DNA of 64,000 bases from Deltaproteobacteria bacterium (lineage in GTDB: Bacteria; Myxococcota_A; UBA9042; PHBI01). Positions 9,344 through 46,230 of this stretch are shown one piece after another. A program made the translations under genes and the position numbers. The stretch spans positions 14,462-78,461 of the forward strand of contig JACKFA010000007.1 of assembly GCA_020632715.1 (NCBI GenBank), read 5' to 3'. Numbering within the stretch: the first letter of the stretch is position 1; every line of letters begins with the position of its first letter. The notes under the pieces were generated by a model that ran no database searches, was not told where the DNA came from, and saw nothing but the letters and a program-made list of their open reading frames with translations.

Positions 9344-9963
9344 CAGGCTTCATCGGGGTCGTCGCCGTGGTCGCGCTGACGACCGCGGCGTGCGGCGGGA
9401 AGAAGGGCGGCGACGGCGGCGCGGGGGCGGCGGCCGTGAAGCCGGCGCCGGTGCTCGCGCCGATGGACATGGAGGCGGCGAAGTCGTTCTGCGACCGCTC
9501 GTGGCCGGGCGAGGGGGCGGGGGCCGTGGACTGGGCGGCGCCTGCGCTGAAGGAGCTGCCGGGGACGCAGGCGGCGCCTGAGCCGAAGGCCGGGTGGCGC
9601 TGGATCAACTTCTGGGCGACGTGGTGCGCGCCGTGCCTCGAGGAGATGCCGCTGCTCGCGAAGTGGGCGGCGGCGCTCGGGGGCGAGGGGGCGCCGGTCG
9701 CGATCGAGCTCTGGAGCATGGACGAGGACCAGGGCAAGCTCGCGGCCTGGGTCCGGAAGAACGGGGCGACGGCGGCGGGGCCGGTGCGCTGGGTGGAGAG
9801 CACGGCGGCGCTGTCGGCGACGCTGACGAAGCTCGGGCTCGACCCGGACGCGTCGCTGCCGATCCACGCCCTCGTCGACGGGAACGGGAAGCTCCGCTGC
9901 GTGCGGATGGGCTTCGTCCACGCGAACGACTACGGCACGATCCGCCGCATCATCGGGCTCTGA
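9322..9963 (+). CDS. TlpA/ResA-like thiol-disulfide oxidoreductase lipoprotein
   Basis: ..WINFWATWCAPCLEEMP.. CxxC motif and an ..ALTTAACGG lipobox. The start is placed at the GTG at 9322 and is approximate. Confidence 0.7.
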   Translation: MDRLLDLAGFIGVVAVVALTTAACGGKKGGDGGAGAAAVKPAPVLAPMDMEAAKSFCDRSWPGEGAGAVDWAAPALKELPGTQAAPEPKAGWRWINFWATWCAPCLEEMPLLAKWAAALGGEGAPVAIELWSMDEDQGKLAAWVRKNGATAAGPVRWVESTAALSATLTKLGLDPDASLPIHALVDGNGKLRCVRMGFVHANDYGTIRRIIGL

Positions 9964-10112
9964 GGCAGGCGGGCGGCCACGAGGGCCGCCCCTACGTGGC
10001 GACGAGGTCGGCGGCGGCGCGAACGACTACGCGGCACGATCCGCCGCATCATCGGGCTCTGAGGCAGGCGGGCGGCTACGAGGGCCGCCCTTACGTGGCG
10101 ACGAGGTCGGCG
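9923..10112. repeat. Tandem duplication of about 97 bp covering the last 41 nt of the tlpA-like gene plus an embedded REP-like hairpin (GCGGGCGGCCACGAGGGCCGCCCCTACG)
   Basis: The two copies, 9923..10019 and 10020..10112, differ by a few substitutions. Confidence 0.55.
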
Positions 10113-10134: not shown

Positions 10135-10380
10135 CCGCCCGCGCGACCCCAGTCGACCCGGCGCGACCGCGGTCCGCCCTGCGCGACCCTGCGAGCGCGC
10201 GACCCCGCGGTCCGCCCCGACGCGACCCCGCGGTCCGCCCCGACGCGACCCTGCGGTCCGCCCCGACGCGACCCTGCGGTCCGCCCCGACGCGACCCTGC
10301 GGTCCGCCCCGCGCGACCCTGCGGTCCGCCCTGCGCGACCCGCGGTCCGCTCTGCGCGACCCTGCGGTCCGCTCCGACGC
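10135..10380. repeat. Tandem array of about 10 units of a 22-23-bp repeat, GACGCGACCC(C/T)GCGGTCCGCCCC
   Basis: Seen directly. The units degenerate toward both ends. Confidence 0.6.
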
Positions 10381-16714: not shown

Positions 16715-18103
16715 ATGCGCCACACCGCCCTCGCCGCCCTCGCCCTGCTCGCGCTCGTCACAGCACCTCGCGCCCGCGCCGACCTCCCGCCCGGGCCGCT
16801 CCCGCGCGTCGAGCCCGCGCCCGCCTGCGTCCCCGGGAGCACGGTGCGCGGCGAGCTCGCCGCCGGCACGCCCCGCGCCTACCGCGCGCTCGACGCCTGG
16901 GAGCGCGCCTGGAGCCCCGACGCCCTCGACCGCGTCCTGCTCGACGCGAGCGACATCGCGCGCTTGAACGGCCGCAACATGGACCGCCCCGAGACGTGGC
17001 AGGACGTCATCGCCGCCGACCGCGACCTCGGGCGCGTCGAGGCCGAGCTCGGCGACCGCTTCGCGCACCTCCGCGAGGCGTTCGTCGGCGGCGGGCTCGT
17101 CGAGGACGTCGTCGGCTCCTTCGGCGCCTCGCAGACCCTCGCGCGCGCGGCCACGCCCGTCGACGAGCTGCGGGTCGTCGTGCACCCCGTCGACCTCCGC
17201 TGCGTCCCGTCCCACGGCGGCTTCTTCCGCCGCCCCATCGACCGCGACTTCGACCGGAACCAGTGCGCGGAGCTCCACCCCGGCGAGCTCGTGCGCGTGG
17301 CCCTCGTCTCGCCCGACGGGCGCTGGCAGTACGTCCACGCCGGGCACGCCGTCGGCTGGCTCGAGGACGCGACGCTGACACCGCCGCTCTCGCCCGCCGC
17401 GGCCCGCGCCTACCGCGACGACGGCGCCCGCGCCGTGGTCGTCGACGACTGGGTCGAGACGGCCGCGCCCGACCTCTACCTCCGCCTCGGGACGGACCTC
17501 CCGCTCCTCGGGCGCGACGACGACGTCGGCGGCGCCTGGGTCCTCGCCCCGTCGGCCCTCGGGCTCGAGCCGCTCTGGGTGCCGGACGCGAGCGGGCTCC
17601 ACGAGGGCTTCCTGCCGCTCACGCGGCGCAACGCGCTCGCGCTCGTGACCGCGCGGATGGGCGATCCCTACGGCTGGGGCGGCGTCGGCGGCGGGCGCGA
17701 CTGCTCGCGGCTCCTGCTCGACGTGATGGCCACCTTCGGCGTGCGCCTCGGGCGGCACTCCTCGGTGCAGGCGGGCAGCGGGGCGCTCACGCGGGACGTG
17801 GCGGGGCTCTCGGACGAGGCGAAGCTCGCCGCCATCCACCAGGCCGGGCAGCTCGGGGTCGTGTTTCTGTACATGCCCGGCCACATCATGTTGTATCTCG
17901 GCGAGCTCGACGGCCGCCCGTGGGCCGCCTCGGCCATCAGCGAGTACCTCGTGCCGTGCGCGGGCGGGGGGCGCGAGACCGTCCGGCTCGACAAGGTGGA
18001 GGTGACGACGCTCGAGCTCGGGCGGGGGACGGAGCGCACGGCCTTCATCGAGCGGATCGCGACCCTCGCCGTGTTCGGAACCGGACCTGGACCCTCGCCA
18101 TGA
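16715..18103 (+). CDS. NlpC/P60 (C40) family cell-wall peptidase with N-terminal SH3-like region
   Basis: ..MGDPYGWGGVGGGRDCSRLLLDV.. catalytic Cys and a downstream ..GHIMLYLG.. His. Signal peptide MRHTALAALALLALVTAPRARA. Confidence 0.7.
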   Translation: MRHTALAALALLALVTAPRARADLPPGPLPRVEPAPACVPGSTVRGELAAGTPRAYRALDAWERAWSPDALDRVLLDASDIARLNGRNMDRPETWQDVIAADRDLGRVEAELGDRFAHLREAFVGGGLVEDVVGSFGASQTLARAATPVDELRVVVHPVDLRCVPSHGGFFRRPIDRDFDRNQCAELHPGELVRVALVSPDGRWQYVHAGHAVGWLEDATLTPPLSPAAARAYRDDGARAVVVDDWVETAAPDLYLRLGTDLPLLGRDDDVGGAWVLAPSALGLEPLWVPDASGLHEGFLPLTRRNALALVTARMGDPYGWGGVGGGRDCSRLLLDVMATFGVRLGRHSSVQAGSGALTRDVAGLSDEAKLAAIHQAGQLGVVFLYMPGHIMLYLGELDGRPWAASAISEYLVPCAGGGRETVRLDKVEVTTLELGRGTERTAFIERIATLAVFGTGPGPSP

Positions 18104-19941
18104 TCGCCCTCCTCACCCACCTCGTCCTCGCCCAGCTCGGCGCCGCCACGGCCCCGACGGGCCCAGGCGGCGTCGACGTCGCCGCGCTCGCGTCGTGCGA
18201 GGACAGCCTCGACGTCGCCATCTTCCAGTCGCCGCGCCGCCCGGACGCGCGCGCGCCGATGCGCGTGATGATCGTGAGCGACCAGGACCTCGGCGCGGGG
18301 GTGACCGTCGTCGAGGTCGCCCCCGACGGCGCGCAGCGCGAGGTCGCGGCCGAGGCGTTCGGCGGGCCGCCCTGGGGCTGGGTGGTCATCGACGCCAAGC
18401 CCACGGTCGGGACGCACCGCTACGCGCTGGTCGCGGGCGGCGCCGTCCGCGCCTGCCAGGACGTCGAGGTGCGGAAGTCGGCCGGCGGCGGGCGCGCGCA
18501 CACGCCGGGCGAGGCGGCGTGGGACGACTACATCAAGTGGGAGCGCGACACGGAGAACCTGTACAGCCTCTGGGTGGAGCGCCTCTTCCTCGCGCCGCTC
18601 GAGGAGGACATCAGCTGGAACCCGCTCCACGACGTGCTGCGCGACCCGTCGCGGAACCTGCTCTACGACCACCTCGGGCTCGACGAGGACGCGGGCGGCA
18701 AGAAGGGGCTCAAGCTCGCGCCCGACTGCGCGGACTTCCCCTACTTCCTGCGCGCCTACTTCGCCTGGAAGATGGGGCTCCCGATGGCGTTCCGGCCGTG
18801 CCGGCGCGGGAACCGCGAGCGCGCGCCGACCTGCGGCGACATCGTCACGAACGAGCTCACGAGCGACGCGGACACGCGCGTCGGGGCGTTCAAGGACTTC
18901 GTGCGGAAGCTGCAGGGGACGGTCCACAGCTCGAGCCTGCGCGGCGTGCCGGAGGACGAGGACAGCGACTTCTACCCGGTGAAGCTGAACCGGCGCGGGC
19001 TGCGGCCGGGGACGATCTATACCGATCCGTATGGTCACACGATGATGGTGGGCCGCTGGTACCCGCAGGAGGCGGGGAAGCCGGGCGTGCTGATGGCCAT
19101 CGACGCGCAGCCGGACGGGACGATCGGGCGGCGGATCTTCTGGAAGGGCTCGTTCATGTTCCCGGAGGACGACGCGCTCAAGGGGGCGGGCTGGAAGCGG
19201 TTCCGTCCGGTGCGGCGCGCGCGCGGCGGGCACGAGGAGCTCGGCAACGAGGCGATCGGCGAGAGCGTCGACTACGGGGACTTCTCGGTGGAGCAGTGGT
19301 CGCGCGGGCAGGAGGGCTTCTACGAGCTCATGGACGAGGTCATCAACCCGGAGCCGCTGCCGCCGGAGCTCGCGCTGATGATGACGATCGACGCGCTCGA
19401 GCAGCAGGTGGCGCGGCGGGTCGAGAGCATCGACACGGGCGAGCAGTACGTGCGGTCGCACCCGGGGAAGCCGGTGAAGATGCCGGACGGGCCGGCGATC
19501 TTCGTGACGGCGGGGCCGTGGGAGGACTACTCGACGCCGGCGCGGGACCTCCGGATCCTCATCGCCATCGACACGGTGAAGGCCTTCCCGGACCGCGTGC
19601 GGCGCTACCCGTCGCGCTTCGAGCTCGCGGCAGGGGCCGACATGGACGCGGTCGTGGCGGGGCTCCGCGAGAAGCTCGCGGCGGAGACGGGGCGGCGGTC
19701 GATCACCTACACGCGGACGGATGGGTCGAAGCAGACGCTGACGCTCGCCGAGGTGATGGCGCGGTCGAAGGCGCTCGAGATGGCGTACAACCCGAACGAC
19801 TGCGTGGAGTGGCGCTGGGGGGCCCCGGAGGGGTCGGACGAGGCGTCGACGTGCAAGCGGCGGGCGCCCGAGGGGCAGCGCGACAAGATGGAGCGCGAGT
19901 ACCGGGGCTGGTTCGAGCGGCGCTACCGGCCGGTCGAGTAG
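18100..19941 (+). CDS. Secreted hypothetical protein (613 aa), possible transglutaminase-like papain-fold domain
   Basis: ATG overlaps the NlpC/P60 stop (ATGA). Signal peptide MIALLTHLVLAQLGAATA. ..APDCADFPYFLRAYFAWKMGLP.. (Cys) and ..YTDPYGHTMMVGRW.. (His) are spaced like a transglutaminase-core Cys/His/Asp triad. No strong family match by eye. Confidence 0.5.
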   Translation: MIALLTHLVLAQLGAATAPTGPGGVDVAALASCEDSLDVAIFQSPRRPDARAPMRVMIVSDQDLGAGVTVVEVAPDGAQREVAAEAFGGPPWGWVVIDAKPTVGTHRYALVAGGAVRACQDVEVRKSAGGGRAHTPGEAAWDDYIKWERDTENLYSLWVERLFLAPLEEDISWNPLHDVLRDPSRNLLYDHLGLDEDAGGKKGLKLAPDCADFPYFLRAYFAWKMGLPMAFRPCRRGNRERAPTCGDIVTNELTSDADTRVGAFKDFVRKLQGTVHSSSLRGVPEDEDSDFYPVKLNRRGLRPGTIYTDPYGHTMMVGRWYPQEAGKPGVLMAIDAQPDGTIGRRIFWKGSFMFPEDDALKGAGWKRFRPVRRARGGHEELGNEAIGESVDYGDFSVEQWSRGQEGFYELMDEVINPEPLPPELALMMTIDALEQQVARRVESIDTGEQYVRSHPGKPVKMPDGPAIFVTAGPWEDYSTPARDLRILIAIDTVKAFPDRVRRYPSRFELAAGADMDAVVAGLREKLAAETGRRSITYTRTDGSKQTLTLAEVMARSKALEMAYNPNDCVEWRWGAPEGSDEASTCKRRAPEGQRDKMEREYRGWFERRYRPVE

Positions 19942-19964
19942 GCGGCGCCTGCGTCGTCGCTACA

Positions 19965-20153
19965 AGGAGCCTGTAGCGCATTAGGGCTTCGAGCGGATTC
20001 GAGGCGTTCTCGGAGCGGATCGGCGAGGCGACGCGAAGCGTCGCCGGTTCCAAAACCCGAGGCGAACCAGCAGGTTCGCCGCAGTGGTTTTGGAACGCCG
20101 AGACGCCCGAGAACGCCCGAAGACGCCGAAGCATCTATGCGCTACAGGCTCCT
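19965..20153. mobile_element. 189-bp MITE-like element, copy 1, with perfect 17-bp terminal inverted repeats AGGAGCCTGTAGCGCAT / ATGCGCTACAGGCTCCT
   Basis: Near-identical to 23998..24186. There is an internal palindrome (GGTTCCAAAACC...GGTTTTGGAACG). Its terminal CTAG supplies the TAG stop of the UbiA gene. Confidence 0.7.
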
Positions 20154-21051
20154 AGAGGAACACGTTGGCGACGAGGCCGGCGCGGGCCCAGAGGGCGGTG
20201 CCGACGAGGAAGATCGCGAGGAGTGCCGTGCCGAGGTGCGTCAGCAGGATGCAGTCGCGGGTCGTGAGGCCGCGGCGGAGGCGCGGGCGGTAGAAGGCGA
20301 GCTGGATCCCGGGGGCGAGGAGCATCAGGAGCTCGCGGAGGCCGACGGCGCCGGTGAGGAAGGCGGCGAGGAGCACCACGGCCGAGGTCGCGAGGAGGGC
20401 GTCGATGATCTGGCGCGCGCGCTCGGGGCCGTGGACGACGGGGTAGGTGGGGACGTTGGCGAGGCGGTCGCCGTCGAGGTCGCGGAGGTCGTAGAGGATC
20501 TCGTAGGTGATCTCGAAGGCGACGAAGAAGACCGCGAGCCAGGCGACGGCGGCGGGGCCGCCGGGGTAGACGAGGCGCCAGTCGGCGGCGACGAGCGGGT
20601 AGATGAAGACGGTCAGGACGAAGAGGACCGCCGACATGAAGTTCTTGAAGAAGTACAGGTCCTTGAAGCGCCGTAGCCCGCTCGGGGTGGGGACGAGGCG
20701 CCAGCTGTAGCCCATGCCGATGAGCTGGACGACGACGCGCCAGGGGGTGAGGGCGGGCAGGAGCGCGACGGTGACGGCGAAGGAGCCGACGAAGACGGCG
20801 ACCCACGCGACGAGCACGGCGCGCTGGGCGCGGGCGACGCGCTCGGTGCCGCGGATCCCGTTGGCGAGGTCCTCCTTCAGGTCGGTGACGCGGTTCAGGA
20901 GGTTGATGAGGAGCCAGTCGACGCCGCCGATGAGGGCGACCGCCCACGGGTAGACCCCCGTGAGGACCCAGCCGAAGACGACGGCGGCGGTCATCGCGAT
21001 GAGGATGATGTGGATCCGCAGGATGGAGGCGGCGTCGGCGAGCCAGGACAT
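20152..21051 (-). CDS. UbiA-family aromatic prenyltransferase (membrane)
   Basis: Start MSWLADAASIL at 21051. Eight or nine TM segments and Asp-rich motifs (..NRVTDLKEDLANG.., ..YDLRDLDGD..). The upstream 114 codons of the tracked ORF are rejected. Confidence 0.75.
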   Translation of the reverse strand: MSWLADAASILRIHIILIAMTAAVVFGWVLTGVYPWAVALIGGVDWLLINLLNRVTDLKEDLANGIRGTERVARAQRAVLVAWVAVFVGSFAVTVALLPALTPWRVVVQLIGMGYSWRLVPTPSGLRRFKDLYFFKNFMSAVLFVLTVFIYPLVAADWRLVYPGGPAAVAWLAVFFVAFEITYEILYDLRDLDGDRLANVPTYPVVHGPERARQIIDALLATSAVVLLAAFLTGAVGLRELLMLLAPGIQLAFYRPRLRRGLTTRDCILLTHLGTALLAIFLVGTALWARAGLVANVFL

Positions 21052-21139
21052 GCGCGGGCGTTTACCGCAGCGGGCGGGCAGCGGGCAACTGCCGTCGGTG
21101 TGTGGCTGCCGGGTGGCTCGGGGACCGGCCGAACGTGAC

Positions 21140-21545
21140 CACGGAGACACGGAGACACGGAGGGAGGAGGGAGAGGAGAGAGGCGTGGTACCGGTTGGGC
21201 GGTGGGAGTCGCGCTGTTGGGGGCCCTCGGGGCTCCGCGGGAGGGAACCACGGAGGCACGGAGGCACGGAGGGAGCAGTGATCTCCGGGGCTTCCGTCTC
21301 CGATAGGCGCTCGTGGTCTTCGGAGGGAGAGGAGGGCTCTCCCTCTCCTCCCACGCGCCCGCGGGGGTTCGACCCGGCCGCCAGGCAGGTCACCCCCCCG
21401 AACCCTCCGTGTCTCCGTGTCTCCGTGGTGAAGAAACGGAGTACTATCAGGCACTAAGCGCCGGAAGAGGGCGCGAGGTCCGAAGAGCCTCCCCTCCGTC
21501 CTCTCCCTCCTCCCTCCGTGTCTCCGTGTCTCCGTGGTTGAAAGT
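21140..21545. repeat. About 400-bp nested inverted-repeat element built on (CACGGAG)3-type arms (GACCACGGAGACACGGAGACACGGAGGGAGG ... CCTCCCTCCGTGTCTCCGTGTCTCCGTGGTTGAAAG)
   Basis: Outer arms lie at about 21142 and 21503, inner arms at about 21236 and 21393. The same arm motif recurs at 43168..43400. Confidence 0.5.
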
Positions 21546-21589
21546 CCCGCAACACCAGGGTGTTGCGACTTCGCCCCCCCGCCCGGCGG

Positions 21590-22072
21590 TCAGACCTGCT
21601 TCACGTACGTGATCAGGTCGTCGCCCGACTTATAAAAATCGGTGATGCGTCCGACCTCGACCATGTCGATTCGGTGATAGAACGCCTGGGTCGCGCCGTA
21701 GCTCTCGGTCGACGACGTCTCGATGCGCACGAGCTTCCCGCCCACCTCGCGCACCCTCGCCGCGCACGCCGCCCAGAGCTTCTTCCCGACCCCGAGCCCG
21801 CGCGCCTCCGGCGACACGACGATCCAGTACAGGTCGTACGTGTGCTCCGTCATCGGCGTCGCCCCGAAGCACACGTAGCCCAGCACCTCGCCCCCGCGCT
21901 CGGCCACCTCGACCCGGTACGTCGTCGCGTCCGGGCCGAGGAGCGCCTCGTCGATGAGCTCGAGCGCCACCACCACCTCGTCGGACGCGAAGTTCTCCGT
22001 CCGCTCCAGGATCGCCGCCAGCGCGAAGCGATCCCGCGCCTCGAGCGGCCTCACCACGATGTCTGCCGTCAC
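21590..22072 (-). CDS. GNAT-family N-acetyltransferase
   Basis: GTG start overlaps the ATP-grasp stop (GTGA). ..LYWIVVSPEARGLGVGKKL.. acetyl-CoA binding motif. The upstream 200 codons of tracked ORF 21590..22681 are rejected as low complexity. Confidence 0.75.
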   Translation of the reverse strand: MTADIVVRPLEARDRFALAAILERTENFASDEVVVALELIDEALLGPDATTYRVEVAERGGEVLGYVCFGATPMTEHTYDLYWIVVSPEARGLGVGKKLWAACAARVREVGGKLVRIETSSTESYGATQAFYHRIDMVEVGRITDFYKSGDDLITYVKQV

Positions 22073-23184
22073 ACCTGCACCCACAGGAGGTCTTCTCGCC
22101 CCGCGACGAGTCGCCCGGGCCGCCCGGCCCGGCGCTCCTTCAAGCTCGCGTCGTCGAGCAGCATCTCCGCGAGCCGCTCCCACGCGACCCCGCGGCTCTT
22201 CGCCGCGAGGCAGAACCCCGCCTCCGGATGCACGTCCGGGTTCGGGTTGATGTCGATGACACACGGCCGCCCCGCCGCGTCGAGCCGCATGTCGACCCGC
22301 CCGTAGCTCGTCCCGCGGATCGCCTCGAACGCCCGCCGCGCCACCTGCACCACCGCCCGGTGCAGCTCCGCGCCCAGCGTCTCCGCCGTCGCCGGCTTCG
22401 AGAACGCCGTCGACTCCGGACAGTCCGGCGTCCACTTGCAGTCGTACGTCACGATCGGCGCGTAGTCCGTCGGGTAGCCCGTGAAGTCGATCTCCGTGAT
22501 CGCGAAGAACCCCGTCAGCGGGTTCGGGCAGATCGCCACGTTGATCTCCCGCCCCGGCAGGTACGCCTCGACCAGATACGGCCCCGGGATCCGCTCCGCC
22601 AGCCACGCGAGCCGCTCCTCGAGCGCCGCGCGGTCGCGCACGAGCGACCCCTGGTCCACCCCGACCGACCCGTCCGCGCACGCCGGCTTCACGAACAGCG
22701 GGAACGGCAGCGTCGCCGCCGCCCGCCGCGCCTCCTCCGGCCCGTCCACGACCAGCCCCGGCGCCACCGGCACCCCACGCCGCTCGAGCAGCGTGCGCGC
22801 CACGTGCTTCGCCTGCGCCGCGAGCAGCGCCCGCGGCCCGTTCCCCGTGTACGGCACCCCGGCGACCTCGAGCAGCGCCGGCACCTCGTGCTCGCGGCTC
22901 CCGTCGCCCCCGAGCGACTCCACCAGGTTCACCACCCGCCCGGCCCCCGCCTGGACGATGTCCTCGACCAGCGCCTCCGGATCGTCGTCCACCGACATCA
23001 TCACGACGTCGTGGCCCGCCGCGGCGAGGTGCTCGCCGAACAGCCGCGCCACGTCCGCGGACTCCTCGCCGGCCTCGCAGCCGATCGCGTCGGCGGCGCT
23101 CCCGCCGGGCAGGTAGTCGCGGTTGTAGGCGATGACGACAGGGCCGGGCCGGCCCGAGGGAGGCTCCTCTTCGCGCTTCTGCAT
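22069..23184 (-). CDS. ATP-grasp enzyme of the D-alanine--D-alanine ligase family
   Basis: Ddl-like N-domain (..VVIAYNRDYLPGGSAADAI..) and ATP-grasp C-domain (..LFVKPACADGSVGV.., ..CVIDINPNPDVHPEAGF..). Start is at MQKREEEPP (23184). Confidence 0.75.
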   Translation of the reverse strand: MQKREEEPPSGRPGPVVIAYNRDYLPGGSAADAIGCEAGEESADVARLFGEHLAAAGHDVVMMSVDDDPEALVEDIVQAGAGRVVNLVESLGGDGSREHEVPALLEVAGVPYTGNGPRALLAAQAKHVARTLLERRGVPVAPGLVVDGPEEARRAAATLPFPLFVKPACADGSVGVDQGSLVRDRAALEERLAWLAERIPGPYLVEAYLPGREINVAICPNPLTGFFAITEIDFTGYPTDYAPIVTYDCKWTPDCPESTAFSKPATAETLGAELHRAVVQVARRAFEAIRGTSYGRVDMRLDAAGRPCVIDINPNPDVHPEAGFCLAAKSRGVAWERLAEMLLDDASLKERRAGRPGRLVAGREDLLWVQV

Positions 23185-23490
23185 CTTCAGTGGCTCCTCG
23201 GCGAGATCGCGTGCGATTGACGCCGGCGCGCCCCCCGCGACGTGGCTCTCACGTCGCGCGGCGTCCGGCTCTCGGTTCCGAGCTTCCCGACCCTGACGCA
23301 GACCCGCGCCAGGCATCCCCGGGAGCCACCTCGGAGCACCCCCGTTGGTGCGAACGGGTAACGACTTTGAAGCCGCGCGTCAAGCGGCGGGACGCAGTGT
23401 TTGCAACATCGGCGCGGCCGCCTGGGCAGCGGCTCTCCGCGGGTAACCGCGACGCCCCGCGAGGCTTCTCGCGACCGGAGCGCCCCCGGT

Positions 23491-24009
23491 ATGTTCCGAG
23501 CCGGAGAGGAGGGCTCCGTGAACGCGAGACAGGCCGCGATCCTGGCCGGCGTCGTGGCGATCGTCGCCGCGGGCGTCACGTGCGACGACGACGGTGGCCC
23601 GCGGCGGATCATCGACAACTTCTGCGCCACCGACCTCGACTGCGGCGCGCTCCTCTGTGTCGGCAGCGCCTGCGCCGATCCGGAGGGGGATCTCGACGGC
23701 GACGGCGTCGTGAACGGCGTCGAGCGCCGGATCGGCACCGACCTCACCCGCCCCGACACCGACGGCGACGGCAAGGGCGACTACGACGAGACGAGCGGCG
23801 GCTCCCTCACCCCGCCCGACCGCGACGGCGACGGCGCCATCGACGCCCTCGAGCGCGCCGACGTCGACACCGACGGCGACTGCCTCCCCGACGAGGCCGA
23901 CCCCGACGACGACGTCGTCGACCCCGACGCCTGCGGCCCCGACGCCTTCTGCGACGGCGACCTCGCCTGCGCCCCGCGCCGCGCCGACGGCGACCCGAGG
24001 AGCCTGTAG
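23491..24009 (+). pseudogene. 5' portion of a secreted Asp-rich (calcium-binding-repeat-like, DxDxDG) Cys-rich protein gene, interrupted by a MITE
   Basis: Signal-like ..AAILAGVVAIVAAGVTC.. and repeated ..DTDGDGKGDYDET.., ..DRDGDGAIDALE.. motifs. The frame ends on a TAG created inside the element terminus. Confidence 0.45.
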
Positions 24010-24186
24010 CGCATTAGGGCTTCGAGCGGATTCGAGGCGTTCTCGGAGCGGATCGGCGAGGCGACGCGAAGCGGCGTCGGTTCCAAAACCCGAGGCGAAC
24101 CAGCAGGTTCGCCGCAGCGGTTTTGGAACGCCGAGACGCCCGAGAACGCCCGAAGACAGCGAAGCATCTATGCGCTACAGGCTCCT
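23998..24186. mobile_element. 189-bp MITE-like element, copy 2, inserted within a coding region
   Basis: Same 17-bp TIRs as copy 1 and about 98% identical over its whole length. Confidence 0.7.
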
Positions 24187-25036
24187 AGCGACGACCCCGG
24201 GCAGTGCGCCTCGGGGGTCTGCTACGCGGGCCTCTGCGGCGCCACCTGAGTGTCCCGACGACGCCGGGTGCGACGGCCTCCTCTGCCAACCGAAGGGCCT
24301 CGGCGGCGCCGCGTGCGACGAGCCGCGCGAGTGCCTCTCCAACATGTGCGAGGCCGGCCTCTGCACCGGCTGCGCGGCCGACGCCGACTGCGACGACGGC
24401 GAGCCCTGCACCGACGACCGCTGCGACGACGCCGTCTGCGTGCAGGTCCCGAACACCGCCGCCTGCGACGACGGCGACGCCTGCACCTTCGCCGACGCCT
24501 GCGCCGGCGGCGCTTGCGCCGGCACCGCGGTCGTCTGCCAGGACGACCCCGGCCCCTGCGGCGCGAACCGCGCCTGCAACGGCACCGCCGCCTGCACCGT
24601 CACCTACCCGGGGAGCGGCACGGGCTGCAACGACGGCAACGCCTGCACCGTCGGCGACCACTGCAACGGCGGCGGCGCCTGCGTCGGCGGGGGGGCCGCG
24701 ACCAACGGCACCGGCTGCGGCGCGGCCGCCTCCCGGCGCTGCTGCGGCGGCACGTGCGTCGACACGAGCGCGGACGCCAGCAACTGCGGCGGCTGCGGGA
24801 TCGTCTGCGGCGCGGGCCTCGCCTGCGAGGATCCCGGCGTCACCACCGGCTGCGGCACCGCCGACTCCTCCGGGCGCTGCCGCTGCACCGGCGCGAACGC
24901 GCAGTGCCCGGGGTCGCAGATCTGCCGCACCTTCACCCCGTGGAACAACCGCTGCGCCCCCGTCGACGCCGGCAGCTGCGCCCCCGGGCAGCACGTCGTC
25001 GCGCTCTCGAGCTGCCCCGACCTCTGCAGCTATTGA
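24170..25036 (+). CDS. Cysteine-rich repeat protein (Myxococcus-type C-x-DGD-x-C-T-x-D-x-C-x-GG-x-C repeats); its first ATG lies inside the MITE
   Basis: At least nine Cys-rich units (..CDDGDACTFADACAGGACAGT.. and similar). No signal peptide from this start. Likely the 3' part of the disrupted gene, possibly still expressed. Confidence 0.45.
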   Translation: MRYRLLATTPGSAPRGSATRASAAPPECPDDAGCDGLLCQPKGLGGAACDEPRECLSNMCEAGLCTGCAADADCDDGEPCTDDRCDDAVCVQVPNTAACDDGDACTFADACAGGACAGTAVVCQDDPGPCGANRACNGTAACTVTYPGSGTGCNDGNACTVGDHCNGGGACVGGGAATNGTGCGAAASRRCCGGTCVDTSADASNCGGCGIVCGAGLACEDPGVTTGCGTADSSGRCRCTGANAQCPGSQICRTFTPWNNRCAPVDAGSCAPGQHVVALSSCPDLCSY

Positions 25037-25103: not shown

Positions 25104-27335
25104 ATGCCCGCCCCCCGGAAGCCGCTGCTCGCCACGCTCAAGGACGCCCTCTCCGTCCCTGAGCGGCGCCTCAAGGCGTGGCTCGTCATCGCGCTCATCG
25201 CCGGCGCCTACCTCTTCGGCGTGGGCGTCCGCCTCGCCTGGGTCCCGAAGGTCGAGGCCAACCCGCAGGCCGTCTGGGCCGGCCACGTCACGCTCACCGC
25301 GACCGACGGCTACTTCTTCGCGAGCGCCGTGCAGCACGCCGTCGAGGGCGGCGAGCCCACGAACATGCGCCTCCCGCCGTGGGAGAAGCACGCGATCACC
25401 ACGATCGCCACGGCCGCCGTGCACGTCCTCGACGCCGCCCCCCTCGAGGTCACCTTCTACCTCCCGGTCTTCCTCGCGCCGCTCCTCGCCGTGCCCCTCG
25501 TGCTCCTCGGGCGCCTCGTCGGCGCGCCCCTCTTCGGCTTCGCCGCCGGCGCCTTCGCGGTCGTCGGGCTCAGCTACTTCAACCGCTCCCTGCCCGGCTA
25601 CTTCGACACCGACATGGTGTCCGTCACCTTCCCGATGGTGCTCGTCTGGCTCCTCGCGAGCGCCGTCATGGCGCGCGACGGCGACGGCGGCCCCGACGAG
25701 CCCCGCGCCCTCCGCTACGCCATCGCCGCCGCCTTCTGGACCGCCTCGGGCACCTTCTTCTACAACCGCATCGCCCCGGTGCTCCTCGCCTTCTCCTTCG
25801 GCTTCATCCTCTACGCCCTCATCTTCCACCGCCGCGAGCGCTGGGTGTGGGTCGCGGCGCCGCTGCTCCTCGTCGCCGTCTGGGGGATCCCCTGGTGGGC
25901 CCGCGTCCTCGCCCTCGTCCCGCTCGCCGTCGTCGCGACGCGCGTCCGCCTCTCGCGCAACGCCCTCATCGCCGCCGGCGCCGTCGCGCTCGTCGTCTTC
26001 TTCCTGACGAGCCCCGGCCTCGACCTCGTGATGAACCCGATCGAGCGCTTCTCCGACCGCGCCGGGAGCACCGGCGAGGGCGGCATCAAGTTCGTCTCCA
26101 CGACCTCCCTCATCCGCGAGACCGCGAAGCTCCCCTTCGACCGCCTCGCCCAGCGCTTCGCCGGCTCGACCCTCGCCTTCGTCATGGGCGTCGTCGGCTA
26201 CCTCCTCCTCTGCGCCCGCCACCGCGCCTTCCTGCTCGCGCTGCCCGTCGTCGCCCTCGGCGCCTTCAGCCTCGACGGCGGGCTCCGCTTCACCATCTTC
26301 GGCGTGCCCATCGCCGCCCTCGGCGCCACCTGGCTCATCTTCCTCGCGCTCGGCTGGCTCGTCCGCGCCGCGCGCGCCCTCGCCTCGCGCCGCGCCGTCC
26401 TCGCGATGCACGTCGTGGGCGTCCTCGCCGCCGTCCCGCTCATCGCGCCGAACGTCGAGGCCGACCTCGCGCGCACCCCCGCGACCGCGCTCCCGGCCGG
26501 CGAGGCCGAGCTCATGCGCGATCTCCGCGCCATCCGGAAGCCCGGCGACTACGCCGTCGCCTGGTGGGACTACGGCTACCCGCTCTGGTACTTCGCGGGC
26601 GTGAACACCCTCGTCGACGGCAGCAAGCACGCCGCCGACACGCTCGCCGTCTCGCAGATCCTCTTCTCCGACTCCCAGCTCCAGGCCGCGAACCTCGCGC
26701 GCGCCGCGGTCGAGCTCTACGCGACGACCAAGCTCCCGAACGCCCCCGCGCTCCCGCGCCTGTTCCGGCGGGCGCGGAAGGAGGGCAAGACCCCGCGGCA
26801 GCTCCTCGCCGAGATGGCGACGCCGGCCTACGAGCCGCCGCCGAAGACGCGCGAGATCTACCTCTACGTGCCGCAGCGGATCCTGCCGCTCATGATCTCC
26901 ATCGAGAAGTTCTCGCAGGACGCGCGCCGCCCCGAGGGCGTCGCCGAGCCGCACCAGCCCTTCTCCGTGTTCTCACCGGCCGTCAAGGAGCTCCCGGGCG
27001 GCGTCGTCGAGCTCCAGGGCGGCTATCGCGTCGATCCGCAGCGCGGCGTCGTCCTGCGCACGCGCAACGGCCGCGAGGAGAGCATGCCCATCGCGACCCT
27101 CTGGGAGGTGGGCGTCAACAAGTCCTTCGAGCCCATCTCGCGCGCGCTCAAGACCTACGCCCCGACCGGCGCGCACGTGCTCCTCATGCGCTCCTACGGC
27201 TCGGCGCTCATCCTCGACGAGGCGCTCCTGCGCTCGAACCTCGTGCAGATGTACCTCTTCGGCAACGTCGACAAGGACCTCTTCGAGCCCGTCCTCCGCA
27301 CCGCCTTCGGCACCGTCTACCGCGTCATCCGATGA
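25104..27335 (+). CDS. pglB: PglB/STT3-type oligosaccharyltransferase (N-glycosylation OST, 743 aa)
   Basis: 13 predicted TM helices plus a C-terminal periplasmic domain. The hallmark WWDYGYPLWYFAGVNTLVDGSKH compares with C. lari PglB WWDYGYP...TLVDGGKH. N-terminal ..TATDGYFFAS.. gives the Asp, ..YFDTDMV.. the DxD and ..TSLIRE.. the TIxE-like motif. The upstream 300 codons of tracked ORF 24204.. are rejected. Confidence 0.8.
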   Translation: MPAPRKPLLATLKDALSVPERRLKAWLVIALIAGAYLFGVGVRLAWVPKVEANPQAVWAGHVTLTATDGYFFASAVQHAVEGGEPTNMRLPPWEKHAITTIATAAVHVLDAAPLEVTFYLPVFLAPLLAVPLVLLGRLVGAPLFGFAAGAFAVVGLSYFNRSLPGYFDTDMVSVTFPMVLVWLLASAVMARDGDGGPDEPRALRYAIAAAFWTASGTFFYNRIAPVLLAFSFGFILYALIFHRRERWVWVAAPLLLVAVWGIPWWARVLALVPLAVVATRVRLSRNALIAAGAVALVVFFLTSPGLDLVMNPIERFSDRAGSTGEGGIKFVSTTSLIRETAKLPFDRLAQRFAGSTLAFVMGVVGYLLLCARHRAFLLALPVVALGAFSLDGGLRFTIFGVPIAALGATWLIFLALGWLVRAARALASRRAVLAMHVVGVLAAVPLIAPNVEADLARTPATALPAGEAELMRDLRAIRKPGDYAVAWWDYGYPLWYFAGVNTLVDGSKHAADTLAVSQILFSDSQLQAANLARAAVELYATTKLPNAPALPRLFRRARKEGKTPRQLLAEMATPAYEPPPKTREIYLYVPQRILPLMISIEKFSQDARRPEGVAEPHQPFSVFSPAVKELPGGVVELQGGYRVDPQRGVVLRTRNGREESMPIATLWEVGVNKSFEPISRALKTYAPTGAHVLLMRSYGSALILDEALLRSNLVQMYLFGNVDKDLFEPVLRTAFGTVYRVIR

Positions 27336-45889: not shown

Positions 45890-45900
45890 CGGGCTCGGTC

Positions 45901-46230
45901 GCGGGCGGCCACGAGGGCCGCCCCTACGGGGATCGGCCGGACGCGGGCGGCCACGAGGGCCGCCCCTACGGTGATGGGCTGGACGCGGGCGGCCACGAGG
46001 GCCGCCCCTACGGTGATGGGCTGGACGAGTGCCGCCCCTACGGTGGGGGCCGCGTGGCGCGGGCGGCCACGAGGGACGGCCGTAGGGTGGGGCTTCACGC
46101 GGGCGGCCACGAGGGCCGCCCCTACGGTGAGGCTTCACGCGGGCGGCCACGAGGGCCGGCCATACGGTGGGGGCTGGCGGCCACTAGCCAGGGGCGTGAG
46201 CATCGGTAGGGGCGGCCCTCGTGGCCGCCC
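45901..46230. repeat. REP-like array: about seven direct copies of a 43-bp unit (GCGGGCGGCCACGAGGGCCGCCCCTACGG + 13-14 nt), closed by one inverted copy
   Basis: The hairpin core GGCGGCC-ACGAG-GGCCGCC is self-complementary. The same unit is found at 9968, 10069 and 10387. Confidence 0.7.

Follow-up and report, generated by a model that had tools for sequence, protein, structure and literature searches.

Background

MITEs that derive from the IS1182 family are known from Methanosarcina acetivorans, in which the ISMac2-related MITEs are 160 and 169 bp long and are associated with a direct repeat of either 4 or 0 bp (PMC3852290). IS1272, an IS1182-family element of Staphylococcus, is reported to insert without target-site duplication and to replace inverted-repeat targets, and the target of IS630 is given as NTAN (both PMC5678879). 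A search of the literature on myxobacteria and MITEs found no account of an element like the one analysed here. Target-site duplication is usual for DDE elements. The IS630/Tc1-mariner and IS5 types classically have CTAG or YTAR targets, with CTAG preferred by IS630 and YTAR by IS5, and produce duplications of TA or of 4 bp. To our knowledge, the mechanism of integration of the IS1182 family has not been worked out biochemically.

The window, that is, the whole 64-kb stretch of DNA that was analysed, contains two copies of a 189-bp unit. With a probability of roughly 0.85, these are MITE copies with the ends of an IS1182 subgroup, inserted at C-Y^R-G (^ marks the junction of flank and element or the point of insertion) without a classical repeat by an IS1182-type DDE transposase supplied from elsewhere.

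Repeat units and their termini

The two units lie about 4 kb apart, at the positions given in the preliminary description of this DNA, and are bounded by the terminal inverted repeats (TIRs) listed here:

19965..20153: MITE copy 1, 189 bp, between two convergent genes
19965..19981, + strand: left TIR of copy 1, AGGAGCCTGTAGCGCAT
20046..20097: central GC-rich palindrome of copy 1, GGTTCCAAAACC...GGTTTTGGAAC, at the tip of a full-length hairpin
20137..20153, - strand: right TIR of copy 1, whose final two bases are the AG of the UbiA TAG stop
23998..24186: MITE copy 2, 189 bp, in the same orientation as copy 1, within a lipoprotein coding frame
23998..24014, + strand: left TIR of copy 2, in which CTG TAG closes a truncated ORF (...DGDP-RSL-stop)
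24170..24186, - strand: right TIR of copy 2, read as ATGCGC... on the + strand, with an outward-facing ATG

The copies are identical at 184 of 189 positions, or at 186 of 191 (97.4%) if the common 3' AG is counted, a fair match to the figure of about 98% given previously; a difference of 2.6% makes no case for recent activity. The perfect 17-bp TIRs that had been described are present, with 17/17 matches at all four ends: AGGAGCCTGTAGCGCAT occurs exactly four times in the window, solely at the four element ends, where shuffled sequences give a chance expectation of 0.11. Sensitive BLASTN with the 189-bp unit detected no further copy in the window. The G+C content of the unit is 64%, versus 73.8% for the window. 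One frame is open through the unit, yet third-position G+C (GC3) drops to background inside it, and a six-frame concatenated peptide query gave no protein matches, a weak negative because arginine-rich words may crowd the candidates; these results are in keeping with the lack of coding capacity noted earlier.

Candidate autonomous partners of the IS1182 family

No IS1182 transposase was found within the 64-kb window, and the unit itself shows no similarity to transposases. A 21-base pattern specific to the unit has no match in a collection of species-representative genomes, from which this exact MITE family is therefore absent; in metagenomes, the pattern matches two short contigs only, both carrying other MITE families with the same TIR. 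The bare 17-nt TIR was located at 98 loci, many of which are lone, chance-like hits in unrelated taxa, while several MAGs have multiple hits. A scan of viral contigs produced one lone TIR-like match, without a mate or a transposase.

The preliminary description proposed that the cognate transposase be sought through a matching TIR, and this route leads to full-length elements that encode IS1182-family transposases. The complete Longimicrobiales chromosome OZ241892 possesses five identical copies of a 1748-bp IS with a 17/17 match at the left TIR. The 569-aa product of its ORF, with the domains DUF772, DDE_Tnp_1 and DDE_Tnp_1_6, scores 352.6 bits on NF033551 (the NCBIfam model for the IS1182 family, cutoff 270) and 61 bits on the IS5 model, against a cutoff of 140. 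A Rhizobacter IS has an exact 17/17 TIR at one end and a transposase 47.5% identical to that of Longimicrobiales, which in a protein search has 7717 relatives at E <= 1e-30; two of these relatives from Myxococcota MAGs, P0176 and P0208, belong to the IS1182 family by NCBI name. These two lie in a Myxococcota IS of 1732 bp (L105), which ends in AGGAGCCTGTACCGCAT, a 16/17 match to the TIR, and in a Myxococcales IS of 2327 bp (L106 84-2410, MAG GCA_045803045.1), which has the related ends AGGAGCCCGTAGGGCAT. The latter also contains a passenger gene between its left end and its transposase gene, encoding a four-helix-bundle protein of the Pfam family 23S_rRNA_IVP.

ISMno38, which was found among annotated plasmids and is the closest IS named in the style of ISfinder, and a Roseomonas IS both have ends that read AGGAGCCCGT... 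after a flanking CT, with the first ten bases and the CT...AG flanks in common. Ends of the form AGGAGCCYGT with CT...AG flanks are common to the Longimicrobiales IS, the Rhizobacter IS, the two Myxococcota IS and ISMno38, and CT...AG flanks were present at all 14 of the 14 observable full-length IS ends that were tallied. Judged by sequence, the 17-nt TIR belongs to a subgroup of the IS1182 family whose closest named relative is ISMno38.

Related MITE families

The same TIR pairs bound at least 40 elements of 160-435 bp, hosted by Myxococcota, Bradymonadia, Thermoanaerobaculales and unclassified MAGs, with up to about 17 loci per MAG. Two elements of 433-435 bp (L034 45-479 and L080 2138-2570) have the same TIRs and retain a remnant of the C-terminus of an IS1182 transposase; they are internal-deletion intermediates between IS and MITE, and the transposase remnant in the 435-bp element provides a direct link between the two. 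The interior of the window MITE, past its first 19-21 nt or so, matches no IS interior, and so no IS that was found can have given rise to it by simple deletion.

MITE families to which part of the interior is similar occur in the Myxococcota MAG JBNJGB01. One of its elements, roughly 185 bp long (L097 3703-3892), has CTAG on both sides; the core shows 80% identity with positions 26-145 of the window MITE, whereas the termini, CAGCGTCCGGGAAAA / CAGTGTCCGGGGAAA, are unlike the window TIR. This element abuts an AGGAGCC-type MITE, and a second copy of it is present in L029. As the same core is found with a different TIR, MITE bodies appear to swap termini between transposase specificities. In a metagenome contig (VAOZ01034305.1, L001 85-468), a C-terminal fragment of an IS1182-type transposase is cut by a same-TIR MITE; the fragment ends RSL-stop, like the interrupted lipoprotein gene of the window.

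Copy 1 at a convergent gene junction

Copy 1 fills the 210-nt gap between the stops of two convergent genes:

18100..19941, + strand: convergent gene with no Pfam hit; its TAG at 19939-19941 lies 23 nt before copy 1
20152..21051, - strand: UbiA-family prenyltransferase gene, 299 aa (PF01040); its stop spans the MITE boundary

The position at the convergent junction, and the contribution of the element to the UbiA stop, had both been recognized in the preliminary description. The stop (20154-20152) is composite: its T is flank base 20154, and its AG consists of TIR bases 20153 and 20152. The insertion point is 4 nt upstream of the former UbiA stop. Without the 189 nt, UbiA would end ...TTC CTC TTG TAG, one codon longer, and the new TAG due to copy 1 shortens the protein by this codon, from ...FLL to ...FL. 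The UbiA protein is identical to MCB9735878.1 from a MAG labelled 'Deltaproteobacteria bacterium'.

An orthologous locus (L101) is empty at the copy 1 site. In the relative, whose UbiA is 88% identical, only 33 nt and no element lie between both stops; this gap is the empty site for copy 1. The relative keeps the neighbours ddl, a GNAT acetyltransferase gene, UbiA and the convergent gene. A composite transposon formed by the two copies was considered and rejected: ddl, the GNAT gene, UbiA and the genes beyond copy 1 are syntenic with this MITE-free relative, and the genes between the copies are therefore residents rather than cargo. The empty site at copy 1, the identity of the TIRs to IS1182-family ends and the hallmarks of a MITE uphold the earlier view of the unit as a non-autonomous transposable element.

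Copy 2 within a lipoprotein gene

The position of copy 2 inside a coding frame escaped the preliminary description. The frame is carried by three segments:

23491..24009, + strand: 5' part of the interrupted lipoprotein gene, with a lipobox and aspartate-rich DxDxDG repeats of calcium-binding type, ending in the MITE
24187..24249, + strand: displaced continuation of the lipoprotein gene, 20 codons (SDDPGQCASGVCYAGLCGAT-stop), with G or C at 20 of 20 third positions
24248..25036, + strand: Cys-rich remainder of the lipoprotein gene in the +1 frame, without a start codon of its own

A single coding frame, recognized by its GC3, runs up to the left TIR of copy 2 from approximately 23490, and the coding frame defined in this way is identical before and directly after the copy. 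Deleting the 189 nt joins ...DGDP to SDDPGQCASGVCYAGLC. Because 189 is 63 x 3, removal of the unit restores the lipoprotein frame, which shows the net gain from the insertion of copy 2 to be exactly 189 nt. The insertion disrupts a secreted-lipoprotein gene of about 450 codons, splitting it at approximately codon 170 and leaving a left product of 172 aa that ends RSL-stop. The homologues of the lipoprotein, usually several hundred to thousands of residues long, align only up to about residue 149, short of the insertion point, and so the restored junction is predicted from reading frame and GC3 composition.

The sole ATG ahead of the Cys-rich remainder is the one in the right TIR of the MITE, which is in frame with this downstream segment. 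The change of lipoprotein frame near 24247 (within 24230-24260), about 60 nt past copy 2, is either a frameshift that makes the gene a pseudogene or an assembly indel; dropping one C in GCCACC would yield ...GLCGAPECPDDAGC at this point. The Cys-rich remainder is followed by an STT3/PglB-like oligosaccharyltransferase gene at 25104. In the relative, the STT3/PglB-like gene adjoins ddl, which marks the lipoprotein gene as accessory.

A scaffold of 1.3 kb from the ENA (L109, WANG18-1_SAMN08389186_METAG-scaffold_78388) is 99.3% identical to positions 23081-24187 of the window, through the left junction of copy 2. Its MITE has three private substitutions and is copy-1-like at four of the five sites that separate the window copies, and its right flank, absent from the window, is the 3' end of a gene ending ...KGKAKEE-stop. 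These features hint at a third copy, either joined by the assembler or present in a rearranged strain. The scaffold is unrelated to the window at both of its ends (1-138 and 1246-1312), a mosaic that may indicate a chimeric assembly; its assembly probably ran across repeats. An annotated 172-aa protein ending RSL comes from this scaffold.

Insertion site and target duplication

Insertion sites were compared at 74 non-redundant ends, read from flank into element. Flank position -2 is C in 89% of these ends, and position -1 is T in 73% and C in 20%; positions beyond -2 are at background, and TIR positions 1-5 are essentially invariant. The resulting flank signature is C-Y-element-R-G. About half of the elements have CTAG on both sides, and the rest deviate in the outer two bases but never in the inner AG...CT. 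In the window, the left junctions of the two copies read CA^AG and CG^AG, and both right junctions read CT^AG. A direct repeat outside the element was found for two of 45 elements at k=2, which is the chance level, and there is no excess of palindromic targets (2.93 versus 2.94 complementary positions). One outlier, L044 3040-3206, is a MITE that lies in the middle of a perfect 16-bp palindrome, AGTCTGCT^AGCAGACT.

As only the outer flank bases vary, TA, AG and CTAG do not behave as true duplications. The target-site duplication suspected in the preliminary description, possibly AG or TA, is thus not demonstrable, and the right-hand AG is half of the CT^AG target preference. Of the features that define a MITE, target-site duplication is absent from the unit. 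On the simplest reading, AG...CT are the element's own termini and insertion splits C-Y^R-G at its Y-R step without net duplication, which fits the frame-preserving insert of 189 nt, the report on IS1272 and the 0- or 4-bp repeats of the Methanosarcina MITEs. CTAG is very rare in the window, with nine sites (two of them made by MITE ends) versus about 150 expected from base composition, and this rarity may explain the non-canonical sites of both copies. TTAA is absent from the window.

The proposed sequence of events is that an IS1182-type DDE transposase, made elsewhere, would recognise the AGGAGCCTGTAGCGCAT ends, with the 17-nt termini as putative binding and cleavage ends for a transposase of the IS1182 subgroup, and would place the 189-bp unit at the Y-R step of C-Y^R-G, canonically CT^AG, yielding no classical direct repeat. 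Movement of the unit in trans, the chemical course of its insertion and a possible influence of the hairpin on transcripts are matters that we infer. A further, speculative proposal, which we think rather unlikely, is that the IS1182 subgroup and its MITEs integrate by an unusual blunt or otherwise duplication-free reaction at the centre of C-Y^R-G, in which the AG...CT termini are kept.

The CTAG on both sides of about half of the elements could also be read as a duplication of TA or of CTAG, as would follow if the MITE were moved by a transposase of the IS630/Tc1-mariner or IS5 type. This is very improbable: all the full-length elements found that have such ends code for proteins of the IS1182 family, and the IS5 score is below the cutoff; the inner A...T and AG...CT are constant while only the outer flank bases vary, so that neither TA nor CTAG behaves as a duplication; and at the window copies the left junction is CAAG or CGAG, against CTAG at the right, with AA or GA in place of the left 'TA'.

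Hairpin structure and other repeats

The internal palindrome reported previously, which corresponds to the central palindrome at 20046..20097, is the tip of a larger structure: the entire unit is an imperfect palindrome that folds end to end into a single hairpin, with a minimum free energy (MFE) of -147 kcal/mol (z = -16) and a nearly equal value for the opposite strand. That both strands fold alike is the behaviour of a DNA palindrome, unlike a strand-specific RNA. The MFE of the two copies is -147 versus -135, and the five differences between them are not compensatory. Among the MITE families compared, that of the window is the most self-complementary and hairpin-like. Rfam covariance models have no match at E <= 1 in positions 19700-24500, and a promoter/terminator scan detected no promoter-like or terminator-like sites within the units.

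The great stability of this hairpin, its self-complementarity and the convergent intergenic position of copy 1 would suit a structured repeat maintained by the host, such as a REP/ERIC-like hairpin that ends transcription or stabilises mRNA, or a gene for a small RNA, with an incidental likeness to IS ends. The likelihood of such a repeat is slight, considering the absence of Rfam matches and of terminator-like or promoter-like sites, the equal folding of both strands, the lack of compensatory differences, the intragenic location of copy 2, the empty copy 1 site in the relative and the 17/17 match of the termini to IS ends. MITE copies with IS1182-subgroup ends remain the preferred interpretation.

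The window also contains a second family of small repeats, whose 41-nt unit encloses the hairpin GCGGGCGGCC-ACGA-GGGCCGCCC; two copies are present near 10 kb (9960-10000 and 10059-10099) and six form a cluster with a spacing of 40-74 nt in a convergent intergenic region (45892-46170). This cluster looks like a REP/BIME-type array. An 81-nt stretch that includes an apparent gene 3' end is duplicated 99 nt apart with 98% identity (9933-10112), and is followed by a 23-bp tandem repeat (10198-10312) with at least four overlapping copies in a 46-nt register.

Segmental duplication of a 189-bp stretch without transposition, the contrary case named in the preliminary description, would agree with there being just two copies in the window, which share their orientation and are separated by 4 kb, but is refuted by comparison of the flanks to a near certainty: when each copy is aligned together with the adjoining 50 nt on either side, identity starts at AGGAGCC and stops at GGCTCCTAG, precisely where the TIRs end; the flanks show no alignment to each other, being different as had been claimed; in many genomes this TIR encloses unrelated cores; and L109 has yet another flank.

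Stop codons at gene ends

The gene context of element ends was called by a codon-position test, a classifier based on GC3 only having been dropped because it is blind to strand. Among 68 unique ends, in the window as well as in other genomes, there are 20 at which a coding-like ORF extends into the element, and at 14 of these 20 the stop of the ORF is a TAG composed of the flank T and the element AG. Since the element starts with AG, insertion into a stop codon at C-T^AG rebuilds TAG. Insertions in the other two frames break genes and presumably do not persist. Copy 1 shows a variant of the pattern: here the site is non-canonical, and the new UbiA stop precedes the old one by one codon. If the pattern is true, rebuilt stops would let IS1182-type elements accumulate exactly at gene ends.

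Significance and comparison with known systems

The element of the window is of an ordinary kind, from a little-studied group of bacteria, and its insertion signature is modestly interesting. It adds a MITE family and an IS1182 subgroup to the mobile elements of uncultured high-GC Myxococcota, in which such elements are barely described. Short-read assemblies are probably disrupted by these repeats of 160-435 bp, to judge from the mosaic scaffold L109. These MITEs also truncate annotated genes, the 172-aa 'protein' ending RSL being an artefact of insertion, and they create or rebuild TAG stop codons. The absence of a duplication, together with the CT^AG signature, is a small, testable clue to how the IS1182 family integrates.

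IS630-type elements and the Correia-like and Stowaway-like MITEs resemble the present family in their CTAG-like target and in that small hairpin MITEs are often located at gene ends, whereas here the partners belong to the IS1182 family and TA does not act as a duplication. The ISMno38-like subgroup of IS1182, represented by ISMno38 of Methylobacterium nodulans, has the same AGGAGCC(T/C)GT... end, but the window element is 189 bp long, has no transposase gene and has an interior without a match; only about the first 10 nt of the end are common to ISMno38 and the window element. IS1272 is alike in its transposase family and in the lack of a classical duplication; it differs in that there is no palindromic target here beyond CT^AG, and the insert adds exactly its own length. 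The ISMac2-related MITEs of Methanosarcina are likewise small, of similar length, TIR-bounded, non-coding and present in more than one copy, with the same ambiguity of a 4-bp or 0-bp repeat. Host phylum, TIR and core are different, and the unit of the window is distinguished by an unusually complete hairpin that extends over its full length.
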